From NCBI GenBank assembly GCA_021513695.1, contig CP084166.1, forward strand, positions 1,056,001-1,120,000: 64,000 nucleotides of DNA. The letters run 5' to 3'. The notes under the pieces are model-generated. The model saw nothing but the letters and a program-made list of their open reading frames with translations. It had not been told where the DNA came from and did no database searches. Within the stretch, counting starts at the first letter, position 1, and the number at the start of each line of letters is the position of its first letter. The DNA comes from Candidatus Heimdallarchaeum aukensis (GTDB taxonomy: Archaea > Asgardarchaeota > Heimdallarchaeia > Heimdallarchaeales > Heimdallarchaeaceae). The position numbers and the translations under genes are program-made. Shown here in pieces: positions 9,247-51,815 of the stretch.

Positions 9247-12200
9247 TCAAAATCTTTTTCTAGTTCTAATTTTAATCCAGCAAGAAAAAACCATAACAAT
9301 AAGGATTGTAATAAATGGGAATGGAAGAATAATAGTATTCTTATTGTTAGTATCATCTCCTGCTGAAGAAGTGGAATCAGTTTGAGAACTACTCTGTAAA
9401 TAGATTACGAATTGACTGGTTGAAGCGATGTTCTCATGAATATCTGAAGCTTCAATGTAGAAAGTCACCTTTTTTTCTTTAATAAATGGTCCTACTTGCA
9501 CGTAATAGACCCCATCTGAAGGTGTCATTAGAACAGACGTTTCTACTGTAGAATCACCTATTGTATAATATAATTTTATATATTTTAATTGACTTTCATC
9601 TGTTACTTTAGCAGATATTTCAATAACAGTTTGATCAGTAGGTTCTGAAGGAGTGTATTGAACGTCTGTTATCGTTGGAGGAATATCATCATAAATAAAA
9701 ATAGAAATTGAAATTTCGTAGAGTTCACTTCCTATAAAGTTTCCAAAAATGTCGACAGCTATGATGTAGAAACTAACTAAACTATTAGCTTCAAAAGGAC
9801 CTAAAGTACAATTATAGGTGTCATCACCAATGTAAGTCATTGTGGGAGAAAACCATTCACCATTGCTTTCGTATACCAACATAACGAACTGTACATCAGA
9901 TTCATAGTCGACAACATTGGCATATATATCTATAGTGTCTAATTCAGTTGGATTTTCAGGAGAATATTGAATATTTAAAATAGCTGGCGCTATATTGTCA
10001 ATTATTGTACCATTGTTTCTTACTGTATCAATGGCAGTTTCAACAGGTAACCATAGTTTTTCATATGTTGTAGTATAAAATAATAAATAATATTCAATAG
10101 TTTCATTAGCTGTTAAAACTAAAGATAATGAGTTATTTCCATAATTGTCTTTATCACCTAAAACACTCATTACATTTCCATAATGTTCATCAGTCCAACC
10201 ATCACCGTGGTAACTATAGTTGGCGAACATAGCAAATCCTTGTTTGTGATAGTCATCAAACATTGTTACATACATCATATTATTGTACGGAGAAACCTCA
10301 CTTGGTAAAATCAAATCCCCACTGTCAAACGGAAAAGAAAGAGCATCAAGAGCTCCAGAATAATAGTAATAGTCATTTGCTTGGTCTCCACCAGTTGTTA
10401 ACTGCAAACGAGTTTCAAGATTGTAAACGTCAGAATAATTGTTAGGGTTGTAAATATAACCACTAACTTTTATTAAGCCAGAGTTCCTTTGGACAGACAT
10501 GTTCATGTCTAAATAAACAACTTCATTTTTTGAAGAATAGATCATCTTTTGTTCCAAAGAAATATTAGCTCTGTATCCATCATTATAAACAATATCCATT
10601 CTTGTAAATTCATAGGGTTCATAACTCTCAGATTGTTTAGTTTGAATAAAATGAGAAAGAACATCAGTGCCAAGAGATACAACCTCAGACTCTGTTCCTG
10701 TTTTCAAGACAAAAGATGTATCGTTTGTTACACACCATTCGTAATAATCGGTGTTAATCCATAACTTGTTGAAATCGTCAATATAGACAAAATCTGAGCC
10801 TGGAGGAATGATGGGTGCTTTATAGATCATAGAATAATACATAGTGCTTGAAACGGCATCAAGACTGTTATCGTTGATAAGATTACCTAAAACAACTACA
10901 CTTCCATTATACAGAAAATGTAAAATATCTCCATTTGCCTTACCAACATCTATAATATCTCTATGACCGTCATTGTCAAAATCAACAAAAGAATCAGCTT
11001 GGTAATTATTATTACTAAGATAATAATATGGAAGACGTGAAACAGGCCTATCAGACTGCCACAACTTGTTTCCAGTACTTGTATCTATAAGTGCAAATCC
11101 TTCTTGATTGGTTGCAATATTTGTCAATATCTCATAATTTCCGTCATTATTATAATCAAATACAGCATCAGCAAAAAATAGCGAGTTGCCTGGAATGTTA
11201 ATAGCTGGAACTACATCTGCTCCAGTATTAACGTCAAGTAGATGAATGTACTCCGATGTACCACCATATGAACCAGTACCTATTGCAATTAACCCCTTGC
11301 TTAATAACTCATCAGTAACCAAATAGTTGCCATCAGCACTACCTTCTAGAGAAACAGACCAGATTTCTGTAAGATCAGTATCATACAATCTCCAATAAGA
11401 AGAACCCCAACCACCTATTAGCCACTCTGGCAGTCCATCACTGTCAAAATCATAAATGTAAGGCTTGCTTAATCCCCACGTACTGACATTAAAATCAACA
11501 AGTGTGGTTGGTATAAAATCCTTAAAATTTACCATCCTAAAATAAGTATTTGAATCATCCGGCCAACCGTAGAACATTATGTCTCTTACACCATCATTAT
11601 CATAGTCATATAAAATAGGAAAGTTTCCTAACTTTGGATATCCTCCATCGTAGTTAACTAAAATATCTCCATTAGTAGAATCAAAAATTAATAGTTGAAC
11701 AGGAGTAGGAGAAGTGTCATCATTAAATTGCTTGCCAAAAATTAATTCTTGAATACCGTCACCATTAAAGTCTTCAAATTCATAGAATCTGTAATAGTCA
11801 CTAGAACCTAAAATAAGTGTTTGTGACCAAACAATCTCTCCAGTATTTTCGTCAAGTCTATAAAATGTATAGTTAAAGTTATCCTCATATGCTTCAATAA
11901 ACCAAGTATAGATTTCTAAAACTCCGTCATTATCAGCGTCTTCAACTGCTCCAGGATTCATGTGGTCTTTTAACCACTGTAAAACCCATTTTCCATCTAT
12001 GTAACTAAATTTACCCATTTTTCTTGTACCTGTACTGTCCTCAAACTCAACTAAAATACTTGTAGTTTCATCTGACTGAAAGGTATCATAAGTTAAAGGG
12101 TTATCTTGAATTTGACTTATTTGAGAGCTAATATTGTTTTTATCTAGAAAAACAGAAGTATTAGTTATTTGGTTCCAGTCTTGACGGATCAAAAATGCAG

Positions 12201-40266: not shown

Positions 40267-40500
40267 CTATTCAACACAGATCATAGTCATTGAATCTTTA
40301 ACTCCCTCTACAATAACTTTGTTATTTAATACTTGATTCTTCAGTTCATCCATGCTATCAAAGGTAACTTTTACAATTAGGTCATAAATTCCATATACAG
40401 CATGAATTTCGTTTACACCTTTTAACATTGACAATTTTTCACGTACTTCTTCTAATTTTCCTGGTTGAACATTTAATAGTATATATGCTGATTGAGTCAT
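40267..40500 (-). CDS. Stand-alone RAM (Lrp/AsnC C-terminal ligand-binding) domain protein
   Basis: 77-aa beta-alpha-beta-beta-alpha-beta pattern YILLNVQPGKLEEVREKLSMLKGVNEIHAVYGIYDLIVKV. Start taken at the internal Met. Confidence 0.6.
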   Translation of the reverse strand: MTQSAYILLNVQPGKLEEVREKLSMLKGVNEIHAVYGIYDLIVKVTFDSMDELKNQVLNNKVIVEGVKDSMTMICVE

Positions 40501-40812
40501 AATATCACATCTCAAACTTATAAATCAACAAAAAAAAATGAATATAAAAGTTTAAACATCTAGACATGACTTTTTTCTTTTTCTTTTTAACGACATAAAC
40601 TAAATAATTACTAACCATCACCCATTTTACACTGAAAAACAAGGTGTGGAGCATTTAATAGACAAAAAAGATTACCATAGTGCTGTTTAGTAGTTATTCT
40701 TATTAAAAAATAAATTGGATAACAATATTATTCAGATTATATCTTGTTCGTTGAATACAAAATATTTTTATTATTACTTCTATCTAACTCCAAAAAAAGA
40801 AAAAGAAGTTTT

Positions 40813-42117
40813 TTAGGTTGCTATACGTAATTTTGTTTTACAAGTTGGGCAAGTTCCTTTTTGAATAATCCATTGATAGAGATGATTTTTGTGGAAAATA
40901 TTATCACAAGAAGGACAACGAATAGAATTCTTAAGATTATTTATGCTTTGGAAGCAAATACTACATTTAGGTTTCATTTGAGACGTACCAACAATTCTAA
41001 AATCTTTTGGAATCGAAGAAAAGTCCACTCTAATAGCGTTCTCAGGTGCGTATTCTGCTTTTTTATATTTTATAGAAGGATAAGACTCAAAACTTTGATA
41101 CTTCTTATTCTTTCTTTTTCTAAGTACAATTGATACAATTATAACAGAAATAACTAGAAATGGTGGTCCAGCATAAAGCACTATTTTCAGAAATATTACT
41201 AAAATACTCAAAAAAGACAAAAATACATCACTTTCATACCATTTTTTAATTTTGAAACTATAATCTTTTCCAAAATCAATAGGTATAGAAAAAATAGAAC
41301 TTTTTACTTTAACAAAGAATAATCTTACAATGTTCAATTCTGTAGCATGATCATAAAAAAGCATTATTGAAGCAAAAGAAGAGGAGTTCGAGTATGTTTC
41401 ATTAAAACTAATAGAAAACCATTCAGCTTTTTGAATACTTTCAGAAAGCTTTAATGAAGCAGAAATCGACGATACTGGTCCTTGATAGGTTTCAGAAAAA
41501 ATTGCATTATTAGATTGATCACACACCATTATATCCAAATTCGAAATATTTTTTCCATAAAAATTAATGTTTACATATAGTTTTTTTAATTCAGTAAAAT
41601 GGTCTGGAATTCTTTCTAAACTAAAGTATAATCGGTTTGTCTGTGCTAAGTCTATAAAAGAGTTATAAGTCCAGATTATAGGTTCAGTGAGATTCAAGTT
41701 CCATGAAAAAACAATTTCCTGAACAAATTTATTAACAAATTGTAGTATATAAATTCCAGGTTTTAATTCTTCTGTAATTAAAAAGTGCTTTTCTTTGTCT
41801 CTAGCTGTTATTAACCAATTATTTAGATTTTGCATATCTTTTTCATGGATTAATAATATACCAAGTCCAGTGTAATCATCATCTAATATAATTTCTCCCC
41901 ATTCACCAACTATAACTGAAATTTCGAGAGTTGCAGGTTCATCTAAATAGACATAATACTCTGTTTCTGAGAATGTATCATCTAGTTTCAAAGAAAAAGA
42001 TGAAGAATTCGATTCTTTTTTAATATAATCTGTAGTTCTTTCTGAAATAGCATAAGTACAAAAAAAGTAAGAAGAAAAAAGAACTAATAGTACTAGCAAA
42101 GTAATTTTCTTTTTCAT
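40813..42117 (-). CDS. Type-I membrane protein with extracellular domain and cytoplasmic C-terminal RING-like zinc finger
   Basis: Signal peptide, ~300-aa ectodomain, TM helix, then C-x2-C-x12-C-x2-C-x4-H-x2-H-x10-C-x2-C (CSICFQSINNLKNSIRCPSCDNIFHKNHLYQWIIQKGTCPTCK). This has RING-H2-like FH...W...CPxC[KR] features. Confidence 0.6.
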   Translation of the reverse strand: MKKKITLLVLLVLFSSYFFCTYAISERTTDYIKKESNSSSFSLKLDDTFSETEYYVYLDEPATLEISVIVGEWGEIILDDDYTGLGILLIHEKDMQNLNNWLITARDKEKHFLITEELKPGIYILQFVNKFVQEIVFSWNLNLTEPIIWTYNSFIDLAQTNRLYFSLERIPDHFTELKKLYVNINFYGKNISNLDIMVCDQSNNAIFSETYQGPVSSISASLKLSESIQKAEWFSISFNETYSNSSSFASIMLFYDHATELNIVRLFFVKVKSSIFSIPIDFGKDYSFKIKKWYESDVFLSFLSILVIFLKIVLYAGPPFLVISVIIVSIVLRKRKNKKYQSFESYPSIKYKKAEYAPENAIRVDFSSIPKDFRIVGTSQMKPKCSICFQSINNLKNSIRCPSCDNIFHKNHLYQWIIQKGTCPTCKTKLRIAT

Positions 42118-44225
42118 TTTTTAGCTCCATTTTGTTTTAATATTAATGCACTTAAACTTATGAAACTTATTAGTATAACAAGAAATTGGAAGTCTGCTGT
42201 TACACCGTAATAATGTTCAAAAGGTTCATTCTTACTATCAAGGTTGAAAGAAACAAATATCTCACCTTCATGATATGAAGGATAGATTAGAACAAAGCAT
42301 TCGTCCTCTGGTAAAAGTACTTCAACAAATCCAGAAGCGATCTCTGTCCAATTCACGTCGTAAATAATAATTTTCATTTCTACATACTCTGAATCGGCTA
42401 ATATAGTTCTCTGCTCGCTGAGATTTAATCTATTATCGATGTACAGAAGAATTGATTGATTATATGTTAAAGTTATGGTCATATTCTGTTCAAATTCCAA
42501 GTTTATCTTTTCTACATTGTAAATATTAACATCGATTGCAATGTTTGTCCAAATTTTTATCTTGTAGAGAGAAAGAGATGAAAGACTCAAGTTGATGAAA
42601 TCTTGGCCTGTTTTTTCATAAACTATTTCTCCTTTCTTAACATCTAAACAAATAATATTTACTGGAGATTCTGCATCAATGAGCCCAATTGTACTATTTT
42701 CTTTAGCTTCTAGATAGAATATGGTACTTTGGTTTTCATAAAGATGGAATGTGAATCGCTCATTTGGTAAAAGATTCAAGTACTCAACATTTTCTCCTAA
42801 AGGAGCTGTATATATGCCTGTTACAATATCATTACCTAGATAATCTTCGGTGTAAATATAATAACTCAGTAGCTCATCTTCATCATCATATTTTAATGAT
42901 AAAATAAAGGTATCACCAGATTGATTGGTAGCTTGAGCAATAACCCAAGTAAGATTGTCATTATAACGGTAAAAAACTTCAACAAAAGGTACTCGGGAAA
43001 CATCTAAAACCTCAACTATGATATTAACATACTTTTGTTCAGTGTTGAAATCTTCAGTGTAAGAAGCCCAAGCTCTTATTTCAGGTGGTAAATCATCAAC
43101 TAAGACTCGAAAAACTTTTTCAATTGTTTGAGTAGATGAAGTATCACTTTCAATTGTTAAATAGGTAACAGTAAGGAATATTTTAAGAGCTTTCTCAACA
43201 GAGTAAGTCTCGATGAAATATTTAATTATTCTTGGTAGATCAGCAGTTGAAGGAAATTCTTCTGTACCAATTCTGACATAGGTTCCATGAGTAATTTCAG
43301 CACCTAAACTTAATCTTTCAATAGTCAATTCATCTGAACCTTTCGCTGCAACAGTACACAAAATAAACTTTTCTTCAGCTAATTGTTCATACAAGTTTTG
43401 TAAATCTCTTGTAGAAACCTTTATTCCATCATCTCCAGCTTCATCAGTAATTAAGACAATAAGATTAGGAACATCCTCTCTCCAATCCATTTGATACATA
43501 GCCACCCATAAAGCATCACCCCAAGGTTCAATAGAGCCAGAAGCTTTCGTTTTTTTCAATTTTTTAACGATTTGTTGAACATCAGAGGTTAAAGGTGTAA
43601 CTAGTTCTTCAAAAAGGTAAGGATTTTCTTTTTCTCCTCCGAAAAGAACTAGACCTATTCGTAAATCATTTATTGTATCTGAAAGTTCATTCACTACTGA
43701 GATTAAGTCAGAAGTTAAAGCTTCAATTTCATCGTCCATCGAACCAGATTGATCTAAAACAATAACTAAATCCAGAGATTCACTTATAGTTTCATTTGTT
43801 GTTACATTTACTTTATATTCTTTTGAAAGGTAGGTTTCATGTCCATTTAAAGTCCCTACAGTTTCAAAGGCACTGTTACTTTCTTCGCCACCATCACTCA
43901 CTAAAACGCCTAAATCATTCAAAGAGAAGTTTAATTTCACATCATAAGCTGCAGTTTCATTAATATTGGTTATATTGAAGTAAAATGAGAACTGATTTTG
44001 AGATTTTATACTTGGCATCTTATCTTCTCTGTGACTTTCTAAATTAGTATTGAAAGATACCTTAAGTTCAGGTTCATCTCTCTCTTGTGTAGTAGTAATT
44101 AAACTTTTGATTTCGTTTTCTGTATCACCAATATTTTCAATATTTCCATCAATCTTTATCCCGCCCAATATAAATCCAGCTATCAAAAGAAGGATTAATA
44201 CTTTTTTTAACTTACCAGTAATCAT
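42114..44225 (-). CDS. Cell-surface protein with von Willebrand factor A (vWA) domain, N-terminal and C-terminal TM segments
   Basis: MIDAS motif LVIVLDQSGSMDD, downstream T and D ligands, N-terminal TM and C-terminal anchor. Start reassigned to MITGKLKK (ATG at 44225). The 4-bp overlap with the RING-like gene indicates an operon. Confidence 0.7.
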   Translation of the reverse strand: MITGKLKKVLILLLIAGFILGGIKIDGNIENIGDTENEIKSLITTTQERDEPELKVSFNTNLESHREDKMPSIKSQNQFSFYFNITNINETAAYDVKLNFSLNDLGVLVSDGGEESNSAFETVGTLNGHETYLSKEYKVNVTTNETISESLDLVIVLDQSGSMDDEIEALTSDLISVVNELSDTINDLRIGLVLFGGEKENPYLFEELVTPLTSDVQQIVKKLKKTKASGSIEPWGDALWVAMYQMDWREDVPNLIVLITDEAGDDGIKVSTRDLQNLYEQLAEEKFILCTVAAKGSDELTIERLSLGAEITHGTYVRIGTEEFPSTADLPRIIKYFIETYSVEKALKIFLTVTYLTIESDTSSTQTIEKVFRVLVDDLPPEIRAWASYTEDFNTEQKYVNIIVEVLDVSRVPFVEVFYRYNDNLTWVIAQATNQSGDTFILSLKYDDEDELLSYYIYTEDYLGNDIVTGIYTAPLGENVEYLNLLPNERFTFHLYENQSTIFYLEAKENSTIGLIDAESPVNIICLDVKKGEIVYEKTGQDFINLSLSSLSLYKIKIWTNIAIDVNIYNVEKINLEFEQNMTITLTYNQSILLYIDNRLNLSEQRTILADSEYVEMKIIIYDVNWTEIASGFVEVLLPEDECFVLIYPSYHEGEIFVSFNLDSKNEPFEHYYGVTADFQFLVILISFISLSALILKQNGAKK

Positions 44226-44227
44226 AT

Positions 44228-44310
44228 ATATCAAGATATCGATATACATACAACTATATAAAAGTTTCTCTTTCACAGAGTATAAGAGAAATATATCAAA
44301 ATATCGAAAT
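44228..44310. promoter_or_regulatory. Two copies of an 18-bp direct repeat, ATATCAAGATATCGATAT at 44228-44245 and ATATCAAAATATCGAAAT at 44293-44310, in a divergent promoter region
   Basis: Seen directly; 16/18 identical. One copy sits just upstream of each divergent operon start. Confidence 0.4.
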
Positions 44311-44340
44311 ATTTATAACATGTATAAATGATTCTTAAAT

Positions 44341-44694
44341 ATGGAAAAACTACTGAACAGAGTAGTTGAGCTTTTAGAAGAGATCAACACAAAATTGAGT
44401 AGAATAGAAAAAAAATTAGAAGGAGAAGGAGAGATTAATATACCTTCTTCAATTGATTTATTAACAAAAATGACTAAAGCGCAAAGATTGACTTATTTTG
44501 CTGTACAAAAAATCGGAGAAGCGACTTGTTCAGAAGTAGCAGAAGAGACAGGAAGAAGTATGAATTTAGAGTCAAGGTATTTAAGGAGATTATATGAAAT
44601 GGGAGTTTTAGGAAGAAAACGTGTTCCTGTTTCAGATAAAGAAGAAGAATGGAAGGGGACAGAAGTGAAGTATTTCATAAAGGAGGAGAAGTAA
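44341..44694 (+). CDS. Small winged-helix (MarR/TrmB-like) DNA-binding protein
   Basis: QRLTYFAVQKIGEATCSEVAEETGRSMNLESRYLRRLYEMGVL fits an HTH plus wing. The stop abuts the start of the ParA-like gene. Confidence 0.5.
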   Translation: MEKLLNRVVELLEEINTKLSRIEKKLEGEGEINIPSSIDLLTKMTKAQRLTYFAVQKIGEATCSEVAEETGRSMNLESRYLRRLYEMGVLGRKRVPVSDKEEEWKGTEVKYFIKEEK

Positions 44695-45462
44695 ATGAAA
44701 ACAATAAGTGTTCATAGTTATAGAGGAGGAACAGGAAAAACAACTTTTTTGTTAAATATTGCAGGAGAGTTAGTAACAAGAGGAAAAAAAGTTTTAGCTA
44801 TAGACTTTGATTTAAGAGCACCAGCATTTCAATCTTATTTTAAAATTGATAAACTGAACTATTTGAGTGACTACCTGTTAAATAAAAAGCATTTAGAAGA
44901 AGTTATTGTTCAAGCAGAAGAAAGAGGAAATGGAAGAATAGATTTGATTTTTTCATCTATGGAATTTTTAAAGCAACATTCAAAACAAAGAGATAAGCTT
45001 GTGAGAGATGATACAGTTTATCTTTCAAAGTTGTATCAATTGCAAAAAGAAGTAGAAGAGAATTATGATTATTTATTAATAGATACAACCCCAGGTTTCT
45101 TTTATAGATCAATTGATGCAATGATGATATCAGATATTCTCTTGATTGTTTCTACACCAACCATTTCTAATGTTCAAGGATTAGAAGAGTTATGGAGAAA
45201 TGTCTATTCTATGCTTAAAGAAGATGTAAATATGTACTTATTAATTAATATGATAGAAAAAGAGGGAGAAAAAGTAGATAAAGAATTAGTAGAAAAAAGT
45301 ATAGAAGAGCTAAAAAAAATGGGGAAGAAATATTTTGCAAATAAGTTGATAGAAATACCAGATTATGGAGCAATGGGAGAAAGAATACATTCGTTTGAAC
45401 AAGAACCAAATAAAGAATTTCTAAATAAGATATCAGAATTAATAGATTTACTAAATGGATAA
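44695..45462 (+). CDS. ParA/MinD-family P-loop ATPase (deviant Walker A with Arg in place of the signature Lys)
   Basis: MKTISVHSYRGGTGKTT aligns to the ParA N-terminus xKGGxGKTT. Walker B-like LLIDTTPG. Confidence 0.75.
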   Translation: MKTISVHSYRGGTGKTTFLLNIAGELVTRGKKVLAIDFDLRAPAFQSYFKIDKLNYLSDYLLNKKHLEEVIVQAEERGNGRIDLIFSSMEFLKQHSKQRDKLVRDDTVYLSKLYQLQKEVEENYDYLLIDTTPGFFYRSIDAMMISDILLIVSTPTISNVQGLEELWRNVYSMLKEDVNMYLLINMIEKEGEKVDKELVEKSIEELKKMGKKYFANKLIEIPDYGAMGERIHSFEQEPNKEFLNKISELIDLLNG

Positions 45463-45475
45463 TAGAGGGAAATAG

Positions 45476-46840
45476 GTGAAAGGTGAGAAGGAAAAAGTAA
45501 AGGATTTAAAAAAGGTCCAAAGTTATTTGAAAGATTCTAAAAAAAATCTTTTACTTTTAAAAAGAGGAAAGAAGCCAAGAAGAAAGCTTAAGTTTCTCAT
45601 TAAAGATCACCTTTTTTTCACAATTTTATTCTTAGTCCTAATAGTAGGAGCAACAACTATTCCCCTCTTAATTAAAGAGAAGACAGATGATAAAATAGAG
45701 CAACCAGAAGAGAAAAAAGTAAAGGAAACGCTTACTCTTCTATCGACAAATTTCACAGATAGTGAAGGTATTCCTATAAACGAGTTAGGTAATTACACTG
45801 AATCATCTAAATTAATTATCCTCTCCACTCTTTCATTTTCAATGCTATATCTGGCAGGCTTTAACATAACAATTGAGCAGTTATCACTTCAGAAAGACAA
45901 TATTCTTTCAATTCTTAATGATGGTTCCTTTGTTCAGTTTAACAACAATAGTCAAAAACTTTCTATTTTCTATCAATTTTTGGGCTTATATGCTCTAATC
46001 CAGCTTCTATATGCAACAAAAAACACTGAGATCGGCTTTAGTATTGATATCTTATTCAACAGTTTGAACAAACAATTGAGGGAATATTACAATAAAGAAA
46101 ATAGGCTATTTATTGATAAAAACGCTACAGAAGCTTTTTTGGTTGACCAATCTTTAGCTTTGTGGGTTATTGCTATCACAATACTCTACTTTAATGTAGA
46201 ATCAATATTTGAATTTTATTTACCTGATATAATTCAAGATGTGTTATACAGTTTAAATCAAGATTATAGAAACGCAACAACTAATAAAATTGTGAGCTCA
46301 ATAAGCAATAAGACAAAAGAGCCAATACAATTAGAAGTGACTTCCTTTGATTTATTAATCTTAGTAGCAGCATTATCCAGAGTAAACTTGCTATATGATT
46401 ACTTCTTTGATAATGATTTAAGTAGTATAAATTTGTTTGAAAATATTATTAACCAGTATACAGATGAGAAACTGATAGTTTACGAAAAAAGATTTCTTAA
46501 TGGACATCTACTAATAAGAAATCAGTGTTTTTTTACTCTAACATCATACCTTTTACACTTAACAGTTACAGGAAATCAAAGTTTGAATGTTGTAACAACA
46601 AACTATTGGAAAGATAATAAGGGTTTCATTGAGGAAATTAATGCAAATAAGTTTTCAGCAGAAGCAAACTACTATGGATTGATAACTTTAGCTAGCCCAG
46701 AATGGAGTAAAGGAGAATATTTCTATATTCAAGACAATTATAAGGGAAATGCCGTAACCTCTAGAGCAGATGTGTTAACGATATTCGTATCATTAGTGAT
46801 AGTATTCATCATAAATAAGAGAAGAAAAAGAATAAAATAA
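45476..46840 (+). CDS. Bitopic membrane protein with large extracytoplasmic domain (hypothetical)
   Basis: Basic N-terminus, TM helix at aa ~45-65, C-terminal TM plus KRRKRIK tail. Confidence 0.45.
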   Translation: MKGEKEKVKDLKKVQSYLKDSKKNLLLLKRGKKPRRKLKFLIKDHLFFTILFLVLIVGATTIPLLIKEKTDDKIEQPEEKKVKETLTLLSTNFTDSEGIPINELGNYTESSKLIILSTLSFSMLYLAGFNITIEQLSLQKDNILSILNDGSFVQFNNNSQKLSIFYQFLGLYALIQLLYATKNTEIGFSIDILFNSLNKQLREYYNKENRLFIDKNATEAFLVDQSLALWVIAITILYFNVESIFEFYLPDIIQDVLYSLNQDYRNATTNKIVSSISNKTKEPIQLEVTSFDLLILVAALSRVNLLYDYFFDNDLSSINLFENIINQYTDEKLIVYEKRFLNGHLLIRNQCFFTLTSYLLHLTVTGNQSLNVVTTNYWKDNKGFIEEINANKFSAEANYYGLITLASPEWSKGEYFYIQDNYKGNAVTSRADVLTIFVSLVIVFIINKRRKRIK

Positions 46841-46844
46841 CAAT

Positions 46845-47495
46845 TTAATTACCAATTAGCCCTTGAGTAATAGAAAAACTAGTTTCATCTTTAATTTGAT
46901 TGTAAAATTGTTTTAGTATTTTTAATCGTCGTCTCGCAAGCCTTTTGGTGAAACAGAAATGCATTCTTGAAGGAAGAAGAAAAAGTTTATCATCAAAATG
47001 AAGTAACATCTCATCTATATCTCTATTGTGCTCTAAACTGAAAGAAATTACACGAAAAAGGCCGATAGAACCTAAAGCATCCAACATATCTGCATCTTGT
47101 AAGATTTTGCCTTCAATACTCGTAGGCTCTCTACTTTTACTGAAACGGTGTTCAAGAATATTAACACGAACTTCCTCTGCTAAATCAGGAAAACCTCGCT
47201 CAGAAAGAAAGTCAAAAGCTATTTTTGAACCCATTTCAGCATGACACTCTCCTGTTTTAGACTCTTCTGGGCGAGCAACATCATGAAAAAGGGCACTTAA
47301 TAAACAAACATCAAGAAAAACATGGAGCTTGACTCCAATAGAATAACACAAGTCAATAACACGAATAGTATGCTCTAAAGAGTGAGTAGAAGAATCATTG
47401 TCTAATTTAGAAGAAACAAAAGAATATCCTTCTTTAAAGATTTTAAGAAATAAAGAATAGTCTTTAATATACTTGGCTTTGTAATGAGAAATCAT
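46845..47495 (-). CDS. HD-domain metal-dependent phosphohydrolase
   Basis: H...HD motif (HTIRV...ALFHDVARPEE) and downstream His/Asp ligands. Confidence 0.75.
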   Translation of the reverse strand: MISHYKAKYIKDYSLFLKIFKEGYSFVSSKLDNDSSTHSLEHTIRVIDLCYSIGVKLHVFLDVCLLSALFHDVARPEESKTGECHAEMGSKIAFDFLSERGFPDLAEEVRVNILEHRFSKSREPTSIEGKILQDADMLDALGSIGLFRVISFSLEHNRDIDEMLLHFDDKLFLLPSRMHFCFTKRLARRRLKILKQFYNQIKDETSFSITQGLIGN

Positions 47496-47527
47496 TAAAC
47501 AATTAAAAAACCTCAGCTATTAATAAT

Positions 47528-49165
47528 TTATGAATAGGCATTTTCATATTCTTCATTATTTGCAGTTAAGCATGAAATTCGGCTATAAATTTCTTCAAAA
47601 TATGATCGTGAATAAATAGTTTCAGAAATGTTATAGTGGTCTTGAATCACACTTAAAGCTTTGTAATAAATTTCCTGAATCAGAAAAAATATATTAACAT
47701 CAAACATGTTTTTTCCAAATGATTTTGGAATCTTATGTAAACCATGAAGTGGATTAATGCAAAACTCTGTATTGAGCTCTGTTAATCCAGACCAATCACT
47801 GTGACTAATACCAGCTGTTGGACCGTAAAACAAATCATAGTATTTTTTGTCTCCAATGTCTTCAGCCATTTTTCTAATACTAGTTTTATCAGCCCAACTA
47901 CCTGTGAGCTTTATTTTTATTAGATCTGATAAACCTTTTTCTGTTAAAATTCTATCAATTTGCTTAATTTTTTTTTCATATCCTTTTGGTTTATATTCCT
48001 CTAATTTCATTTTTTCATTCTTTTTTTCACCATAACCATATTCTTTAAACTTTGCATATAATTCTTCATCATCTTTTAGTAATAACCACTTTAAAACAAA
48101 ATATGTTTCTAAATGGTTTCTTAGTAGAATATAGCCAATAGATGGTTCTTGGAAAACTAAATAATTGGAAAAAAATTGAAAATTTGACGCTAGTCTAGAA
48201 ATAAGTCCAGCAACGATATCCTCTTTGGATGGATTATATATGTTAATTTTGATTTTTTTCCACATTTGATTGATTTCAAGATCAATACTATCAATCAAAT
48301 AAAGTCGCATTTCGGTAAGTTCATACCAAACTTGATTATATTCTTGAATATTTATCTTTCTCATGGAAGGAATACAAGGAGATAATAGTCCATTTTTCAT
48401 CCAGAATTTTTTTGACCAATTTTGATCAATAAAATTATCTAAAAATATAGCTGATATGCTTCGCGCCGATGATTCAACCAATTTTTTGTCTCCCTGCGGA
48501 TATACCGATAGTGCTTTAATAATCCTCGAACAAGTTTCTTGTTCTAACCCGATTATTTTTCTCTCTTCCATCATTCTCATTAGAACAAGTACTCGCATTA
48601 ATGATGCAAGATCACCATGACTCTCATATAACTCGATAATAAGATTAGAAATAACATCTAAAATCTCATCTTTTTGACTCTCGGAAAATGGTTTTACGTT
48701 AAATAAATAATTAAGAGAATCTTCTTGATAAATATTCATTATATCCTCAAAACGCGTTCTAATAAAAATAGACGCAAAAATGTGTTGAATTTCATTTAAG
48801 AAATCTTTTTGATGCTCTAAAGGAATATTAGAAAATTCGCTTACCAAGCCAAATGAGACAGCATCAGATTGAAGATATTTTTGAATTAATTGAGTAGTCT
48901 TTCTGTAAAGATAAAGAGCTTTATGATGATCATAAGTAGTGAATAAACTAGCTACCCAAAGAAACTCAGGAAGTTGTTTTTTTGACCAATCAACTTCTAT
49001 TATCTTATCCTCTCCTAACAGATATAAGAGGGGGGAAATCAAATGTTTCTTATATCGTTTGTGTTTTAAATACTTATCTTTTTTGTGTTTCATAAAAGAT
49101 ATTATTGAAAAATATAATATAAAATATTCGAAATTTAATTTTTTAATATTAATAAAATAAAGCAT
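47528..49165 (-). CDS. Large hypothetical protein (no recognisable domain)
   Basis: 545-aa ORF with good local coding character, 33 bp upstream of the HD gene. Start probably internal (MKHKKDKY). Confidence 0.45.
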   Translation of the reverse strand: MLYFINIKKLNFEYFILYFSIISFMKHKKDKYLKHKRYKKHLISPLLYLLGEDKIIEVDWSKKQLPEFLWVASLFTTYDHHKALYLYRKTTQLIQKYLQSDAVSFGLVSEFSNIPLEHQKDFLNEIQHIFASIFIRTRFEDIMNIYQEDSLNYLFNVKPFSESQKDEILDVISNLIIELYESHGDLASLMRVLVLMRMMEERKIIGLEQETCSRIIKALSVYPQGDKKLVESSARSISAIFLDNFIDQNWSKKFWMKNGLLSPCIPSMRKINIQEYNQVWYELTEMRLYLIDSIDLEINQMWKKIKINIYNPSKEDIVAGLISRLASNFQFFSNYLVFQEPSIGYILLRNHLETYFVLKWLLLKDDEELYAKFKEYGYGEKKNEKMKLEEYKPKGYEKKIKQIDRILTEKGLSDLIKIKLTGSWADKTSIRKMAEDIGDKKYYDLFYGPTAGISHSDWSGLTELNTEFCINPLHGLHKIPKSFGKNMFDVNIFFLIQEIYYKALSVIQDHYNISETIYSRSYFEEIYSRISCLTANNEEYENAYS

Positions 49166-49183
49166 AATTTTTATAATAGTTAA

Positions 49184-49576
49184 GTGAATAGTTTAGTTAT
49201 GAACAATAAAAAAATAAACAAGAATCAAGGAGAAAAACAAGAGTCTCAAGCTTTTACCATGTCAATTTTTTCTAGACGCTGGGGACATGAAGATAACTAT
49301 ATTGTATTTATGTGGGAAGAAGGTTGGAAAATATCATCACATAGTGGTATTGTTGAATGTAATAAAAGATTTGAACCAGGATTATATGACATACTTAAAC
49401 ATGACTCGATTAATTACCCTAAAAATCTTCCTCTATATTTCGAATGGTTTTGGGAAGAAGCTCAAGAACAAGGATTAAACCATGAAGAAATTCAAGAAGG
49501 ATTGACAGAACTTACTAACTGGATAAACAGATGTGAAATTTCAACTCCTTCAAAAGGAATATTTGAAAGATTTTAA
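49184..49576 (+). CDS. Small Trp-rich hypothetical protein
   Basis: 130-aa ORF between the unknown 545-aa gene and the OLD-family gene. Confidence 0.4.
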   Translation: MNSLVMNNKKINKNQGEKQESQAFTMSIFSRRWGHEDNYIVFMWEEGWKISSHSGIVECNKRFEPGLYDILKHDSINYPKNLPLYFEWFWEEAQEQGLNHEEIQEGLTELTNWINRCEISTPSKGIFERF

Positions 49577-49670
49577 AATTTGCATGTAAAATCAAAGGCT
49601 ATATTAGACAACATAAAATGATGTCTCCATATGATTGCTAAGATTGACACAATATATAAAAAGAATTTTT

Positions 49671-51815
49671 CTAATTTAAATTACCTAAGAATTCTAAAAA
49701 AGCTAAAAATTCAGTATTTTTATTTTTAATTAATTTTATAACTAAATTGAAACATTCTTCAAATGTCATATCTTTCCAGTCGTCTTTTTTGAATTTTGTT
49801 ACTGTCTTTTTAATCATACCTTCTAAATCATTCTCCCAAGAGAAAATATTGTAATTCTTTGCAAAACTAATAATCTCCTTTTTCCTTTCTTGTATATTAG
49901 TTGTTTTTGAAGAAAAAATTTCATCTAAATTTATATTACACCGTTGTTTCAAAATTTTACTAATATAACTATTAGTCAAAGAATTTTTAGGTTTAAGAAA
50001 TGCATCAAAATCACATATTAAAACATACTTAATATCAAAGAAATCTGCTATCGATAAAGCCTTGGAAATATCACCGGTACCATCAATTGAAATAACATCC
50101 CAATTTAAGAAATTCGTGCTTGAAAGATTAAGTTCTTTTTGAATATGATGATTCTCCAGAACAGAGAATAAAGTTGTAACAATTTTATTGTCATATGTTC
50201 CTTCAACAAAAATAACATTGGAAGCAAAAAATATGCTTTTTATGTTAGGATCCAAGAGAAAACGATTATAACGCTCTTCATCTTTAAGTCCTTCAAGAAA
50301 AGATCTTAAATATTTAATCTGACTTCCAGTTTTTGTTTTTAAACATCGAAGAATTGAATATAGAAGTTCATTAGATATCAAATCAGGACTATGAGTGACA
50401 ACTAAATAAGAATGCTCATTATCTTGTTTAATATAATTACCAAGTTTCTTTCTAAAAGAAGGATGAAGAGTTTTACCAGGTTCATCTAATATTATAGTAT
50501 CAGCTTCAAATCCATAAATGGAACATAAAACCATTAAAATCTCATAAGCTCCTCCAGGCGAGCAATTTAATCTAAAAGCTTTATTATTTTGCAAGTCGTG
50601 AAATTGAATATCAGGACGTTTACCTGTTAATACTGCACCTTCATCTAATTTAATAGAATAGGAGTTTTGTTGAGAATAAGAAGAATCAGGTTCAATTAAG
50701 AGAACAGGAGCTTTTTTTTCATGAACCTTTTCGTCAACAAGGACAATGTTAAAATTATATTTTTCTTCAGTCATAGTTTTGAAATGTTCTCTGATACGTT
50801 CAAAAATTTCTTGCTCTTTGGGATTTGAACTCATTTTCTTTTGAAATAGTGCATATTTGATTCTTTCAAGAGTTAGTACATTTGTAATGTTTTCTCTCCA
50901 AGGATAACTAAAACCATTTTCTAATAATCCTCTATCTTCTCTTAAAATAACAACTTTTTGTCTAATGATTTTTGAAATAAAATTGCCAAAATATTTGTAG
51001 TAATTATAAATTTCAATTTTATAACCCATTTTTCGAAGCAAAATTCTAAAATCTGCAGATAAATTATGAAGTTCAGGTAAAAAATCAATATTACTGAAAT
51101 CTAATTCAGATAAATATAAAATTAAGGCTTTTTCAAATATATATTGAAAAAAAATATTTTTTAGAAAATCTTCATTATTTTTAACAAGTTCTTTAATATC
51201 TTCTCCAGGATATAAATCATTAAAGGATTTGACGAAAGAAGTAATATTTCGAAAATCTAGATATTGATTTTTACTTAATGTTAAAATTTCATCTAATTTT
51301 TTCTCTTTGTCAACTAAAATAATTATATTTGTTGAAGGATTACTTAAGTAAATGTTTAAAGATTCATTAAATGAAAGTATTAAAAAATATTTTAATCTCT
51401 CAGGATTGTTGCTTTCAGAACAAAAGCCTATTGTTAAATCAGAAAAAGAATCCTTGAGAAAATTCTCCCAATTGTTAAAGAAAGAATAGATTAATGCTCT
51501 ACCGAATTCTTGATCTGAACTTAAATGCATTGAACAAAAAGATAAGACAAGAAATTTACGTAAAAAAATACGTTCATCTTCACTTAGTTCAAAGGTTAAA
51601 TAAATTTTAGATTGAGTTTTGGTGTCCCAAAAAGGAAAATAAGACCAATCTAAGTTAGAGGTTGCAGAGTTGGATAATATAAAATCAATTATTCTAACAA
51701 GATTAGATTTTCCAGAACCATTCTCGCCAACAATAATAGACTTTTGATTAAGATTTATTTCTTGTTCTTCAGAATAAGAAAGAAAGTTCTTGATATAAAT
51801 CTTCTTAAGAATCAT
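49671..51815 (-). CDS. OLD-family (overcoming lysogenization defect) ABC-type ATPase with C-terminal Toprim nuclease domain
   Basis: N-terminus IKNFLSYSEEQEINL...IIVGENGSGKSNLVRIIDFIL (AAA_15/21-type Walker A). Distal D-loop/H-loop ILDEPGKTLHP...LVVTHSPDL. C-terminal Toprim-like VIFVEGTYDNKIV and LICDFDAF (E and DxD). Confidence 0.7.
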   Translation of the reverse strand: MILKKIYIKNFLSYSEEQEINLNQKSIIVGENGSGKSNLVRIIDFILSNSATSNLDWSYFPFWDTKTQSKIYLTFELSEDERIFLRKFLVLSFCSMHLSSDQEFGRALIYSFFNNWENFLKDSFSDLTIGFCSESNNPERLKYFLILSFNESLNIYLSNPSTNIIILVDKEKKLDEILTLSKNQYLDFRNITSFVKSFNDLYPGEDIKELVKNNEDFLKNIFFQYIFEKALILYLSELDFSNIDFLPELHNLSADFRILLRKMGYKIEIYNYYKYFGNFISKIIRQKVVILREDRGLLENGFSYPWRENITNVLTLERIKYALFQKKMSSNPKEQEIFERIREHFKTMTEEKYNFNIVLVDEKVHEKKAPVLLIEPDSSYSQQNSYSIKLDEGAVLTGKRPDIQFHDLQNNKAFRLNCSPGGAYEILMVLCSIYGFEADTIILDEPGKTLHPSFRKKLGNYIKQDNEHSYLVVTHSPDLISNELLYSILRCLKTKTGSQIKYLRSFLEGLKDEERYNRFLLDPNIKSIFFASNVIFVEGTYDNKIVTTLFSVLENHHIQKELNLSSTNFLNWDVISIDGTGDISKALSIADFFDIKYVLICDFDAFLKPKNSLTNSYISKILKQRCNINLDEIFSSKTTNIQERKKEIISFAKNYNIFSWENDLEGMIKKTVTKFKKDDWKDMTFEECFNLVIKLIKNKNTEFLAFLEFLGNLN

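Follow-up and report, generated by a model that had tools for sequence, protein, structure and literature searches.

A membrane-anchored RING protein encoded with an integrin-like vWA surface protein in Candidatus Heimdallarchaeum aukensis

The eukaryotic transmembrane E3 ubiquitin ligases of the RING-H2 type (i.e., the PA-TM-RING proteins RNF13/RNF167/GRAIL, ZNRF3/RNF43, plant ATL/EL5, RNF24, Hrd1 and gp78/AMFR) combine a signal peptide, a ligand-binding ectodomain, a single transmembrane (TM) helix and a C-terminal RING domain. The soluble archaeal RING E3s, such as those of Caldiarchaeum subterraneum and of Asgard archaea (Hel/Odin), are small cytoplasmic proteins that are encoded beside genes for ubiquitin (Ub), E1, E2, UEV-Vps23 or the endosomal sorting machinery ESCRT, and they are presumed or shown to work with eukaryote-like E1, E2 and Ub. 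In this study, we analyzed a 64,000-nucleotide stretch of the Candidatus Heimdallarchaeum aukensis genome (contig CP084166.1, positions 1,056,001 to 1,120,000; hereafter, the window), in which the minus-strand gene 40813..42117 encodes a 434-amino acid (aa) protein that resembles both kinds of ligase. It shares with the eukaryotic transmembrane enzymes their order of parts and the residues that contact E2, but it is encoded in an operon and paired with a separate protein that has a von Willebrand factor A (vWA) domain. Unlike the soluble archaeal RING E3s, it is membrane-anchored, has a 270-aa ectodomain and lacks any Ub-system neighbor within 9 kb.

Taken together, the gene structure, the identities of the domains, the topology signals, the conservation of residues and of synteny, and an operator motif firmly support two conclusions. 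The 434-aa protein is a type-I membrane protein whose cytoplasmic domain is derived from RING-H2, and it is co-transcribed with an integrin-like vWA protein in a co-regulated module of five genes that is specific to the Heimdallarchaeum/AB_125 clade. The first-pass annotation of this DNA, which made part of its reading conditional on an Asgard-like genome, had the vWA gene start at position 44225 and overlap the RING gene by 4 bp. Both open reading frames (ORFs) are indeed present on the minus strand (42114..44225, 703 aa, and 40813..42117) and share the four bases ATGA, and the source is an Asgard archaeon. The product of 40813..42117 is 100% identical to a protein of Ca. H. aukensis (P0001) that is encoded on a 3.08-Mb contig and named "E3 ubiquitin protein ligase" at NCBI. 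Although the longest ORF of the vWA gene (42114..44276) opens with GTG (position 44276), the start is better placed at the ATG of 44225, which aligns with the N termini of the orthologues and lies directly downstream of a conserved arrangement of a TATA-like box and a short motif (see below).

The RING domain forms the C-terminal end of the protein (aa 381-434; 40813..40977 on the minus strand, including the stop codon). Its translation reads C385-x2-C388-x12-C401-x2-C404-x4-H409-x2-H412-x10-C423-x2-C426, exactly as had been noted at first, and among all six-frame ORFs of the window this RING-type pattern is unique to the tail of the 434-aa protein. The initial description of the tail as RING-like was borne out by profile searches. 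Pfam zf-RING_2 (PF13639) matches aa 384-427 with 29.1 bits (gathering cutoff, 27.3 bits; E = 1.2e-6), and the same profile is matched by all 18 aligned family members (best E = 7.2e-9). When the single tail was searched against PDB, RING-H2 E3s were found, i.e., Arkadia (E = 1.4e-6), gp78, RNF165, RNF126, Hrd1, listerin, EL5, ZNRF3 and RNF13, and the RNF24 RING is also among the significant matches. A family profile made from 13 orthologous tails (alignment A3) matched 34 PDB chains at E < 0.01, every one of them a RING E3 domain and most of them RING-H2, with Arkadia at the top (2e-11) and RNF165, gp78, RNF38, EL5, ZNRF3, RNF13 and Hrd1 among the others; zinc ribbons, PHD fingers and B-boxes were absent from these 34 matches. 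Prok-RING_1 (PF14446), which reportedly represents the prokaryotic RING fingers of Burroughs, Iyer and Aravind from 2011, matches 13 of the 18 family members only partially (profile positions 3-33 of 54) and mostly below its gathering score of 29.1 bits, and it has no match in the H. aukensis protein at E ≤ 0.1; zf-RING_2 is the better fit. Judged by its sequence, the tail is a true RING, and its pattern is not due to chance. From a domain of 45 residues, orthology with a particular eukaryotic family cannot be deduced.

The zinc ligands differ from those of a canonical RING-H2 domain (C3H2C3), in that ligand 4 is not a His and ligand 6 is His412, which makes the tail a C4H2C2 variant. It aligns with ligands 1, 2, 3, 5, 6, 7 and 8 of RING-H2, while ligand 4 is displaced. 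The second Cys of C-P-S-C corresponds to canonical ligand 3 and H409 to ligand 5, and H412 occupies the position of the RING-H2 Cys6. Because the canonical His4 position holds Asn in H. aukensis and Ile or Val in the orthologues, Cys401, located three residues upstream of ligand 3, is likely the substitute fourth ligand. With Cys401 as a ligand, two CxxC knuckles would make up site 2, and the ligands of site 1 would be C2H2. The fourth and sixth ligands had been described as swapped; the His at position 6 was recognized correctly, whereas the change at position 4 is better described as a displacement, in which His4 was lost and was likely replaced by the upstream Cys. The best single-sequence PDB match (7p2k) is a variant of the Arkadia RING in which ligand 3 is preceded, at a distance of three residues, by a Cys (RCLPC, compared with RRLPC in 2kiz) and which thereby bears, by chance, the same extra CxxC as the archaeal family.

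The eight ligands form four pairs that are invariant in 18-20 sequences, with a spacing compatible with a cross-brace, and the Cys/His pattern is kept in orthologues of 24-33% identity, so that the conservation called for at the outset was found. Invariant in alignment A2 are C385, C388, R400, C401, P402, C404, D405, H409, H412, L413, W416, C423, P424 and C426. In the c-Cbl, RNF4, RNF38 and Arkadia structures, E2~Ub is contacted by an Ile or Val after Cys1, a helix Trp, a Pro after Cys7 and a linchpin residue. The corresponding residues of the archaeal tail, I387 (C-x-I-C), W416 (helix), P424 (C-P-x-C) and K427 (linchpin), align residue for residue with Arkadia and RNF165. W416 and P424 are invariant, I387 is nearly so, and position 427 is Lys in at least 90% of the sequences and occasionally Arg or Asn. 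In an AlphaFold2 (AF2) model of the full 434-aa protein, which was built with 18 sequences and has a mean predicted local distance difference test (pLDDT) score of 76.6, the RING domain has a pLDDT of 85-93 and contains strands at 398-400 and 407-409 followed by a helix at 410-420. This modeled strand-strand-helix order is RING-like, i.e., the beta-beta-alpha core expected of a RING; fold searches with the full-length model returned matches to the ectodomain only.

Outside the RING, hydrophobicity and comparison with the orthologues agree with the topology first proposed, i.e., a signal peptide, an ectodomain, a single TM helix and a cytoplasmic tail. The N-terminal hydrophobic segment or signal peptide (aa 1-24; 42046..42117) is seen in the Kyte-Doolittle profile at aa 3-26 and in the orthologues. 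It is followed by the ectodomain (aa 25-296; 41230..42045), by a TM helix (aa ~297-335; 41113..41229; hydrophobic at aa 294-334 and helical at aa 297-339 in the AF2 model) with RKRKNKK after it, in keeping with the positive-inside rule, and by a cytoplasmic linker (aa 336-380; 40978..41112). The orthologues likewise have one TM segment of 20-30 aa followed by K/R, and the N-x-S/T sequons are confined to the parts predicted to lie outside. The ectodomain has no match in Pfam or NCBIfam. Structure searches with the model show it to consist of two beta-sandwich jelly-roll domains in tandem, whose fold resembles that of PPC/collagen-binding, GOLD and CUB domains. The first-pass annotation had likened the protein to the eukaryotic E3s with a protease-associated domain (PA-TM-RING). 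The likeness holds for the signal peptide, the single TM helix and the C-terminal RING but not for the ectodomain, as jelly-rolls stand in place of the PA domain, for which no Pfam match was found in the protein or its family members; the ligand set (C4H2C2 instead of C3H2C3) also differs. The 45-residue linker has low pLDDT values in the AF2 model and is probably disordered. Two conserved motifs lie in it, PSxKY and [AV]-x-Y-x-P, and both Y356 and P358 are invariant in alignment A2. These motifs could be docking sites, and their likeness to late-domain-type peptide motifs is speculative.

The 703-aa partner consists of a signal peptide, the vWA domain with its metal ion-dependent adhesion site (MIDAS), a C-terminal ectodomain region of ~330 aa, a TM helix and a short basic tail. 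Its vWA/MIDAS assignment, made in the first reading, is well founded: Pfam VWA scores 43.5 bits (cutoff, 23.8 bits), VWA_2 is also matched, and the DxSxS motif is present as D158-Q-S-G-S162 (43740-43754) within the domain at 43296..43772. The MIDAS sequence LDQSGSM is invariant and G-x-EPWGDAL and LITDE are conserved in 22 sequences, and the median identity of the domain among orthologues is 52%. The hydrophobic segments are located at aa 1-29 and 673-700, the latter being the C-terminal TM anchor that precedes the cytoplasmic tail KQNGAKK (42126..42209), and all orthologues end in a TM helix and a K/R tail of 4-7 residues. The protein contains 14 sequons, compared with 6.5 ± 2.3 expected. No database match was found for the ~330-aa C-terminal region, nor any match for the protein in a PDB sequence search. 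With its extracellular MIDAS vWA domain, membrane anchor and very short cytoplasmic tail, the protein resembles the integrin beta I-like domain proteins, the Sib proteins of Dictyostelium and bacterial BatA and CglD. It differs from them in that the match to Integrin_beta is below the cutoff (21.9 vs. 24.8 bits) and spans only 53 residues, those to vWA_SIBA-E (Pfam) and to BatA and CglD (NCBIfam) are weak and below all family cutoffs, and none of the other integrin modules (PSI, hybrid, EGF), an alpha subunit or a MoxR partner was found with it.

In eukaryotic vWA-plus-RING proteins, a functional link joins a MIDAS-type vWA domain to a RING (PMC7155146). Unlike plant RGLG1/2 and TFIIH p44/Ssl1, the Heimdall pair places an extracellular vWA domain and a cytoplasmic RING on two proteins, and any coupling between them must therefore cross the membrane. 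In RGLG1/2 and p44/Ssl1, vWA and RING belong to one cytoplasmic or nuclear polypeptide.

How many members of the RING-protein family were found depended on the search. A word-indexed protein search, even with a profile, found only 3-7 family members, whereas an exhaustive search of 1.84 billion representatives gave 270 matches at E < 1e-3, among them, at 23-32% identity, ~18 clusters in which the ectodomain-TM-RING architecture is complete. When the species representatives of GTDB were scanned, 23 loci were found, 18 of which are titled Heimdallarchaeota metagenome-assembled genomes (including the original AB_125), while the other five are titled H. endolithica, "uncultured archaeon" (three) or "Promethearchaeati archaeon." The co-occurrence that the first-pass annotation had asked to be checked was thus found, with the vWA/RING pair present in about 21 species-level genomes. 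The gene order in 18-21 genomes is 454-aa protein (-), ParA-like ATPase (-), winged helix-turn-helix (wHTH) protein (-), then vWA (+), RING (+), a RAM-domain gene (+) and orc1/cdc6 (-). The distance from the vWA stop codon to the RING start codon is 4-8 bp in 16 of 19 loci and 53 bp at most.

While the pairing of the two genes stands, the unit is larger than the two-gene operon proposed at first. Divergent from the vWA gene, three plus-strand genes are found. The first encodes a 117-aa winged-helix protein (44341..44694; weak TrmB/HTH_24 matches; 55% identity, syntenic in 19 loci), which is a candidate regulator. The second encodes a syntenic 255-aa ParA/MinD-like P-loop ATPase (44695..45462; 58% identity) with the P-loop motif RGGTGKT, which matches Pfam AAA_31 (E = 2.7e-27), ParA, CbiA and MipZ and, below cutoffs, archaeal MinD and ParA of NCBIfam. 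The third, also syntenic, encodes a 454-aa membrane protein (45476..46840; 32% identity) with a basic cytoplasmic N-tail, a TM helix, a sequon-rich middle part of ~360 aa and a C-terminal TM helix with a basic tail, for which no Pfam, NCBIfam or PDB match was found. Its N-tail (45476-45680) contains a conserved L-x-R/K-x-K-x-GKKPRRKLRF just before the first TM helix, and by analogy it may resemble the basic N-terminal peptides of partners that stimulate ParA/MinD ATPases.

The two operons diverge from a bidirectional promoter region (44226..44340) that contains two copies of a 16-nt motif (44228-44243 and 44293-44308). The motif is a direct repeat (D1) and partly palindromic (ATCGATATCTTGATAT / TTCGATATTTTGATAT). 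The pattern ATCGRWATNTTGATAT occurs twice in the 64 kb, both times in this region, compared with 0.12 occurrences expected. On the vWA side, one copy separates a TATA-like box from the start codon of the vWA gene; on the wHTH side, the other copy adjoins a TATA-like box. Across the clade, the orthologous divergent intergenic regions, which are 115-140 bp long, retain both the motif and the TATA-like boxes. On this sequence evidence, ATCGATATCTTGATAT is likely the operator for the adjacent 117-aa winged-helix protein. In one genome, the divergent operons are separated by a 4.7-kb insertion (L019:1993-6752).

Based on these findings, we propose a model in which a physical complex, recruitment of E2, transfer of ubiquitin, its substrates and a role of the ATPase are put forward. 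The vWA protein would be an integrin-like adhesin or receptor that binds its ligand through the MIDAS metal ion and is anchored by its C-terminal helix. The RING protein would expose two outward-facing jelly-roll binding domains and, given the tight coupling of the two genes, is probably complexed with the vWA protein. The RING tail, which keeps every residue for docking of E2~Ub, would recruit a Heimdall E2~Ub and modify nearby cytoplasmic lysines; candidate targets are the linker of the RING protein itself, the tails of the vWA and 454-aa proteins, which are rich in K, and associated proteins. Events at the cell surface may thereby be coupled to turnover, sorting (by ESCRT or the proteasome) or signaling, as with the eukaryotic transmembrane RING E3s. 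The divergent operon would be co-regulated through the shared operator, with the wHTH protein probably regulating the complex, and the ParA/MinD-like ATPase together with the basic N-tail of the 454-aa protein would probably position or assemble it. We give roughly an even chance to the core of this model, that the ectodomains act together at the surface and that the RING couples the surface to turnover, sorting or signaling by recruiting E2~Ub and modifying nearby lysines.

Several points weigh against the model. The ligand set of the RING is non-canonical and its cross-brace geometry putative. Neither in the window nor up to ~9 kb from the cluster in the 23 loci did we find a gene for Ub, E1, E2 or a JAB protein, and we therefore rejected the possibility that the cluster is a ubiquitin operon. 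Prokaryotic RINGs are, according to what Burroughs et al. are said to have reported in 2011, not all parts of ubiquitin pathways. By hhalign, no homology is detectable between the ectodomains of the vWA and RING proteins, whose physical interaction is putative; we rejected homology of the RING-protein ectodomain to the 454-aa protein and to both the N- and the C-terminal part of the vWA protein, as the probabilities were <1%. Moreover, synteny runs on past cdc6 (GNAT, AMP phosphorylase, a 308-aa protein and AlaX) in all loci, while it stops beyond the 454-aa gene. The cluster thus belongs to a syntenic block that extends further on the Cdc6 side, and adjacency by itself says little about function.

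The first two of these points also favor the main alternative, that the RING tail is a non-catalytic zinc-binding module that links the surface complex to partners in the cytoplasm (e.g., the ParA/MinD-like ATPase, the cytoskeleton or a signaling protein) and does not transfer ubiquitin. This would also fit the co-regulated neighbors, i.e., a ParA-like ATPase and a basic-tailed membrane protein, as well as the non-Ub roles of prokaryotic RINGs that Burroughs et al. reportedly proposed. Against this alternative, the very residues with which eukaryotic RINGs contact E2~Ub (the Ile after Cys1, the helix Trp, the Pro after Cys7 and the basic linchpin after Cys8) are invariant or nearly so. Ub and catalytic E2s are, moreover, present in the clade: Heimdall AB_125, which carries the same cluster (L015), has ubiquitin, two E2s with a catalytic Cys, and ubiquitin E2 variant (UEV)/ESCRT-I proteins that bind its ubiquitin (PMC9192718), and in vitro reconstitution of an Asgard E1/E2/RING cascade has succeeded (bioRxiv 10.1101/2023.07.25.550441). 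The ubiquitin machinery that the RING would need is therefore present in the clade and encoded away from the cluster. We consider the docking module possible but rather unlikely.

A second alternative concerns the gene pair itself. The adjacency of vWA and RING could be inherited synteny only, with independent surface proteins encoded in a conserved block by orc1/cdc6, as the continuation of the block on the Cdc6 side would suggest; all loci also belong to one clade, whose housekeeping neighbors are 64-73% identical. Several features of the cluster speak against it, and we regard it as improbable. The overlap or the 4-8 bp spacing is kept despite divergence to ~30% identity, and the conserved operator motif is common to both operons. 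The three predicted extracellular parts are 26-33% identical, compared with 62% for the RING domain, 58% for ParA, 55% for the wHTH protein and 52% for the vWA domain. The ectodomains thus evolve fast and at matched rates, and such apparently coordinated evolution argues for a functional unit.

The only loss seen was, in addition, a joint one. In H. endolithica (CP084167), a clean deletion of ~4.6 kb, corresponding to ~42034-46627 of the window, joined the 454-aa gene, of which the last 70 codons remain, to about codon 29 of the RING gene (L001:9796-10002 and 10001-11212). This single event took the ParA, wHTH and vWA genes as well as the signal peptide of the RING protein, and the same junction is found in two Logan read-set assemblies (L002 and L003). 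Because a near-identical relative of H. endolithica (L004) has the intact cluster, the deletion is probably recent and the remaining RING gene a remnant. Accordingly, we rejected this 5'-truncated copy as evidence that the RING protein functions independently. The shared 16-nt motif, the matched rates and this single deletion argue for a functional unit. A DDE transposase is located ~2 kb from the deletion. In two other loci, the RING gene is split into two ORFs (L017:8863-10197 and L027:8896-10207), which reflects either a frameshift (i.e., a pseudogene) or an assembly error.

It is also quite unlikely that the module is a virus- or conflict-related surface system, such as a sensor or exclusion device, in which viral or foreign ligands would be followed by the changing ectodomains and a response set off by the RING. 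In its favor are the very fast evolution of the ectodomains, a neighboring variable region that encodes an OLD-family nuclease and a DUF5677 protein, and the recurrence of vWA domains in prokaryotic conflict systems (PMC7159879). Against it, PADLOC gave no match for the vWA, RING or 454-aa proteins, neither a MoxR partner nor an effector domain was found, and the fixed chromosomal position and normal composition are unlike those of mobile defense islands. Besides the OLD-family nuclease (714 aa; AAA_15 + TOPRIM) and the DUF5677 protein (545 aa), the variable region (46845-51815), which looks like a defense islet, encodes an HD-domain protein and a 130-aa ORF resembling an "integron cassette protein."

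The C4H2C2 tail of the 434-aa protein belongs to a larger class. Among the top 148 representative matches, 116 have the pattern C-x2-C-x8-16-C-x2-C-x4-H-x2-H-x2-3-W-x5-9-C-x2-C, and in more than half of the C4H2C2 matches, TM helices precede the C-terminal RING. The named members of the class come from Heimdall, Loki and Freya archaea, and many of these Asgard RINGs match Prok-RING_1 partially. The design of signal peptide, ectodomain, TM helix and RING recurs with other ectodomains, for example in a DUF2341 protein and in a Lokiarchaeial protein that exceeds 1864 aa in length and has Ig-like repeats. This class points to a broader family of receptor-like proteins. No vWA neighbor was found in the two contexts of other C4H2C2 RING genes that were examined (P0035 and P0021), and the link to vWA is therefore specific to the family of the 434-aa protein. 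A wider proposal is that transmembrane RING E3s of the Heimdall group ubiquitylate the tails of their own surface complexes, here the vWA adhesin, and feed them into Ub-ESCRT or the proteasome, which would represent a pre-eukaryotic form of receptor down-regulation, with the other Asgard ectodomain-TM-RING proteins forming a class of receptors. We offer this proposal tentatively, with doubts outweighing our confidence in it.

The first-pass annotation had suggested that the protein is not from an established prokaryotic family. This applies to its full-length architecture but not to the RING domain, which is annotated by NCBI and Pfam, and RING E3s are already known in Asgard archaea. In the literature searched, we found no description of the receptor-like architecture, of the C4H2C2 ligand variant as a large Asgard class, of an obligatory vWA partner within a five-gene module or of a RING protein tied to a ParA-like operon by a shared operator, and all four appear to be undescribed. 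For the question of what Asgard archaea ubiquitylate, and whether membrane proteins are among the cargo, an adhesin and a membrane-anchored RING protein form a concrete system of an E3 and a candidate substrate that can be reconstituted with proteins already expressed from AB_125, and the pair is a testable candidate for ubiquitin-controlled regulation of surface proteins in an archaeon closely related to eukaryotes. Should the E3 prove active, a eukaryotic principle, sensing by an ectodomain and marking by a cytoplasmic RING, would be older than eukaryotes.

The gene that separates the RING gene from orc1/cdc6 (40267-40515) encodes a RAM domain (Lrp/AsnC ligand-binding) of 82 aa that stands alone and lacks a helix-turn-helix. 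It is present in every locus with 71% identity, and a T-rich stretch after the RING stop codon suggests that it is transcribed separately. Within the wider C4H2C2 class, some members (among P0021-P0151) have two RINGs or zinc ribbons before the RING, and the P0076 cluster (999 aa) combines a Dna2-like nuclease-helicase with a RING at its C terminus.

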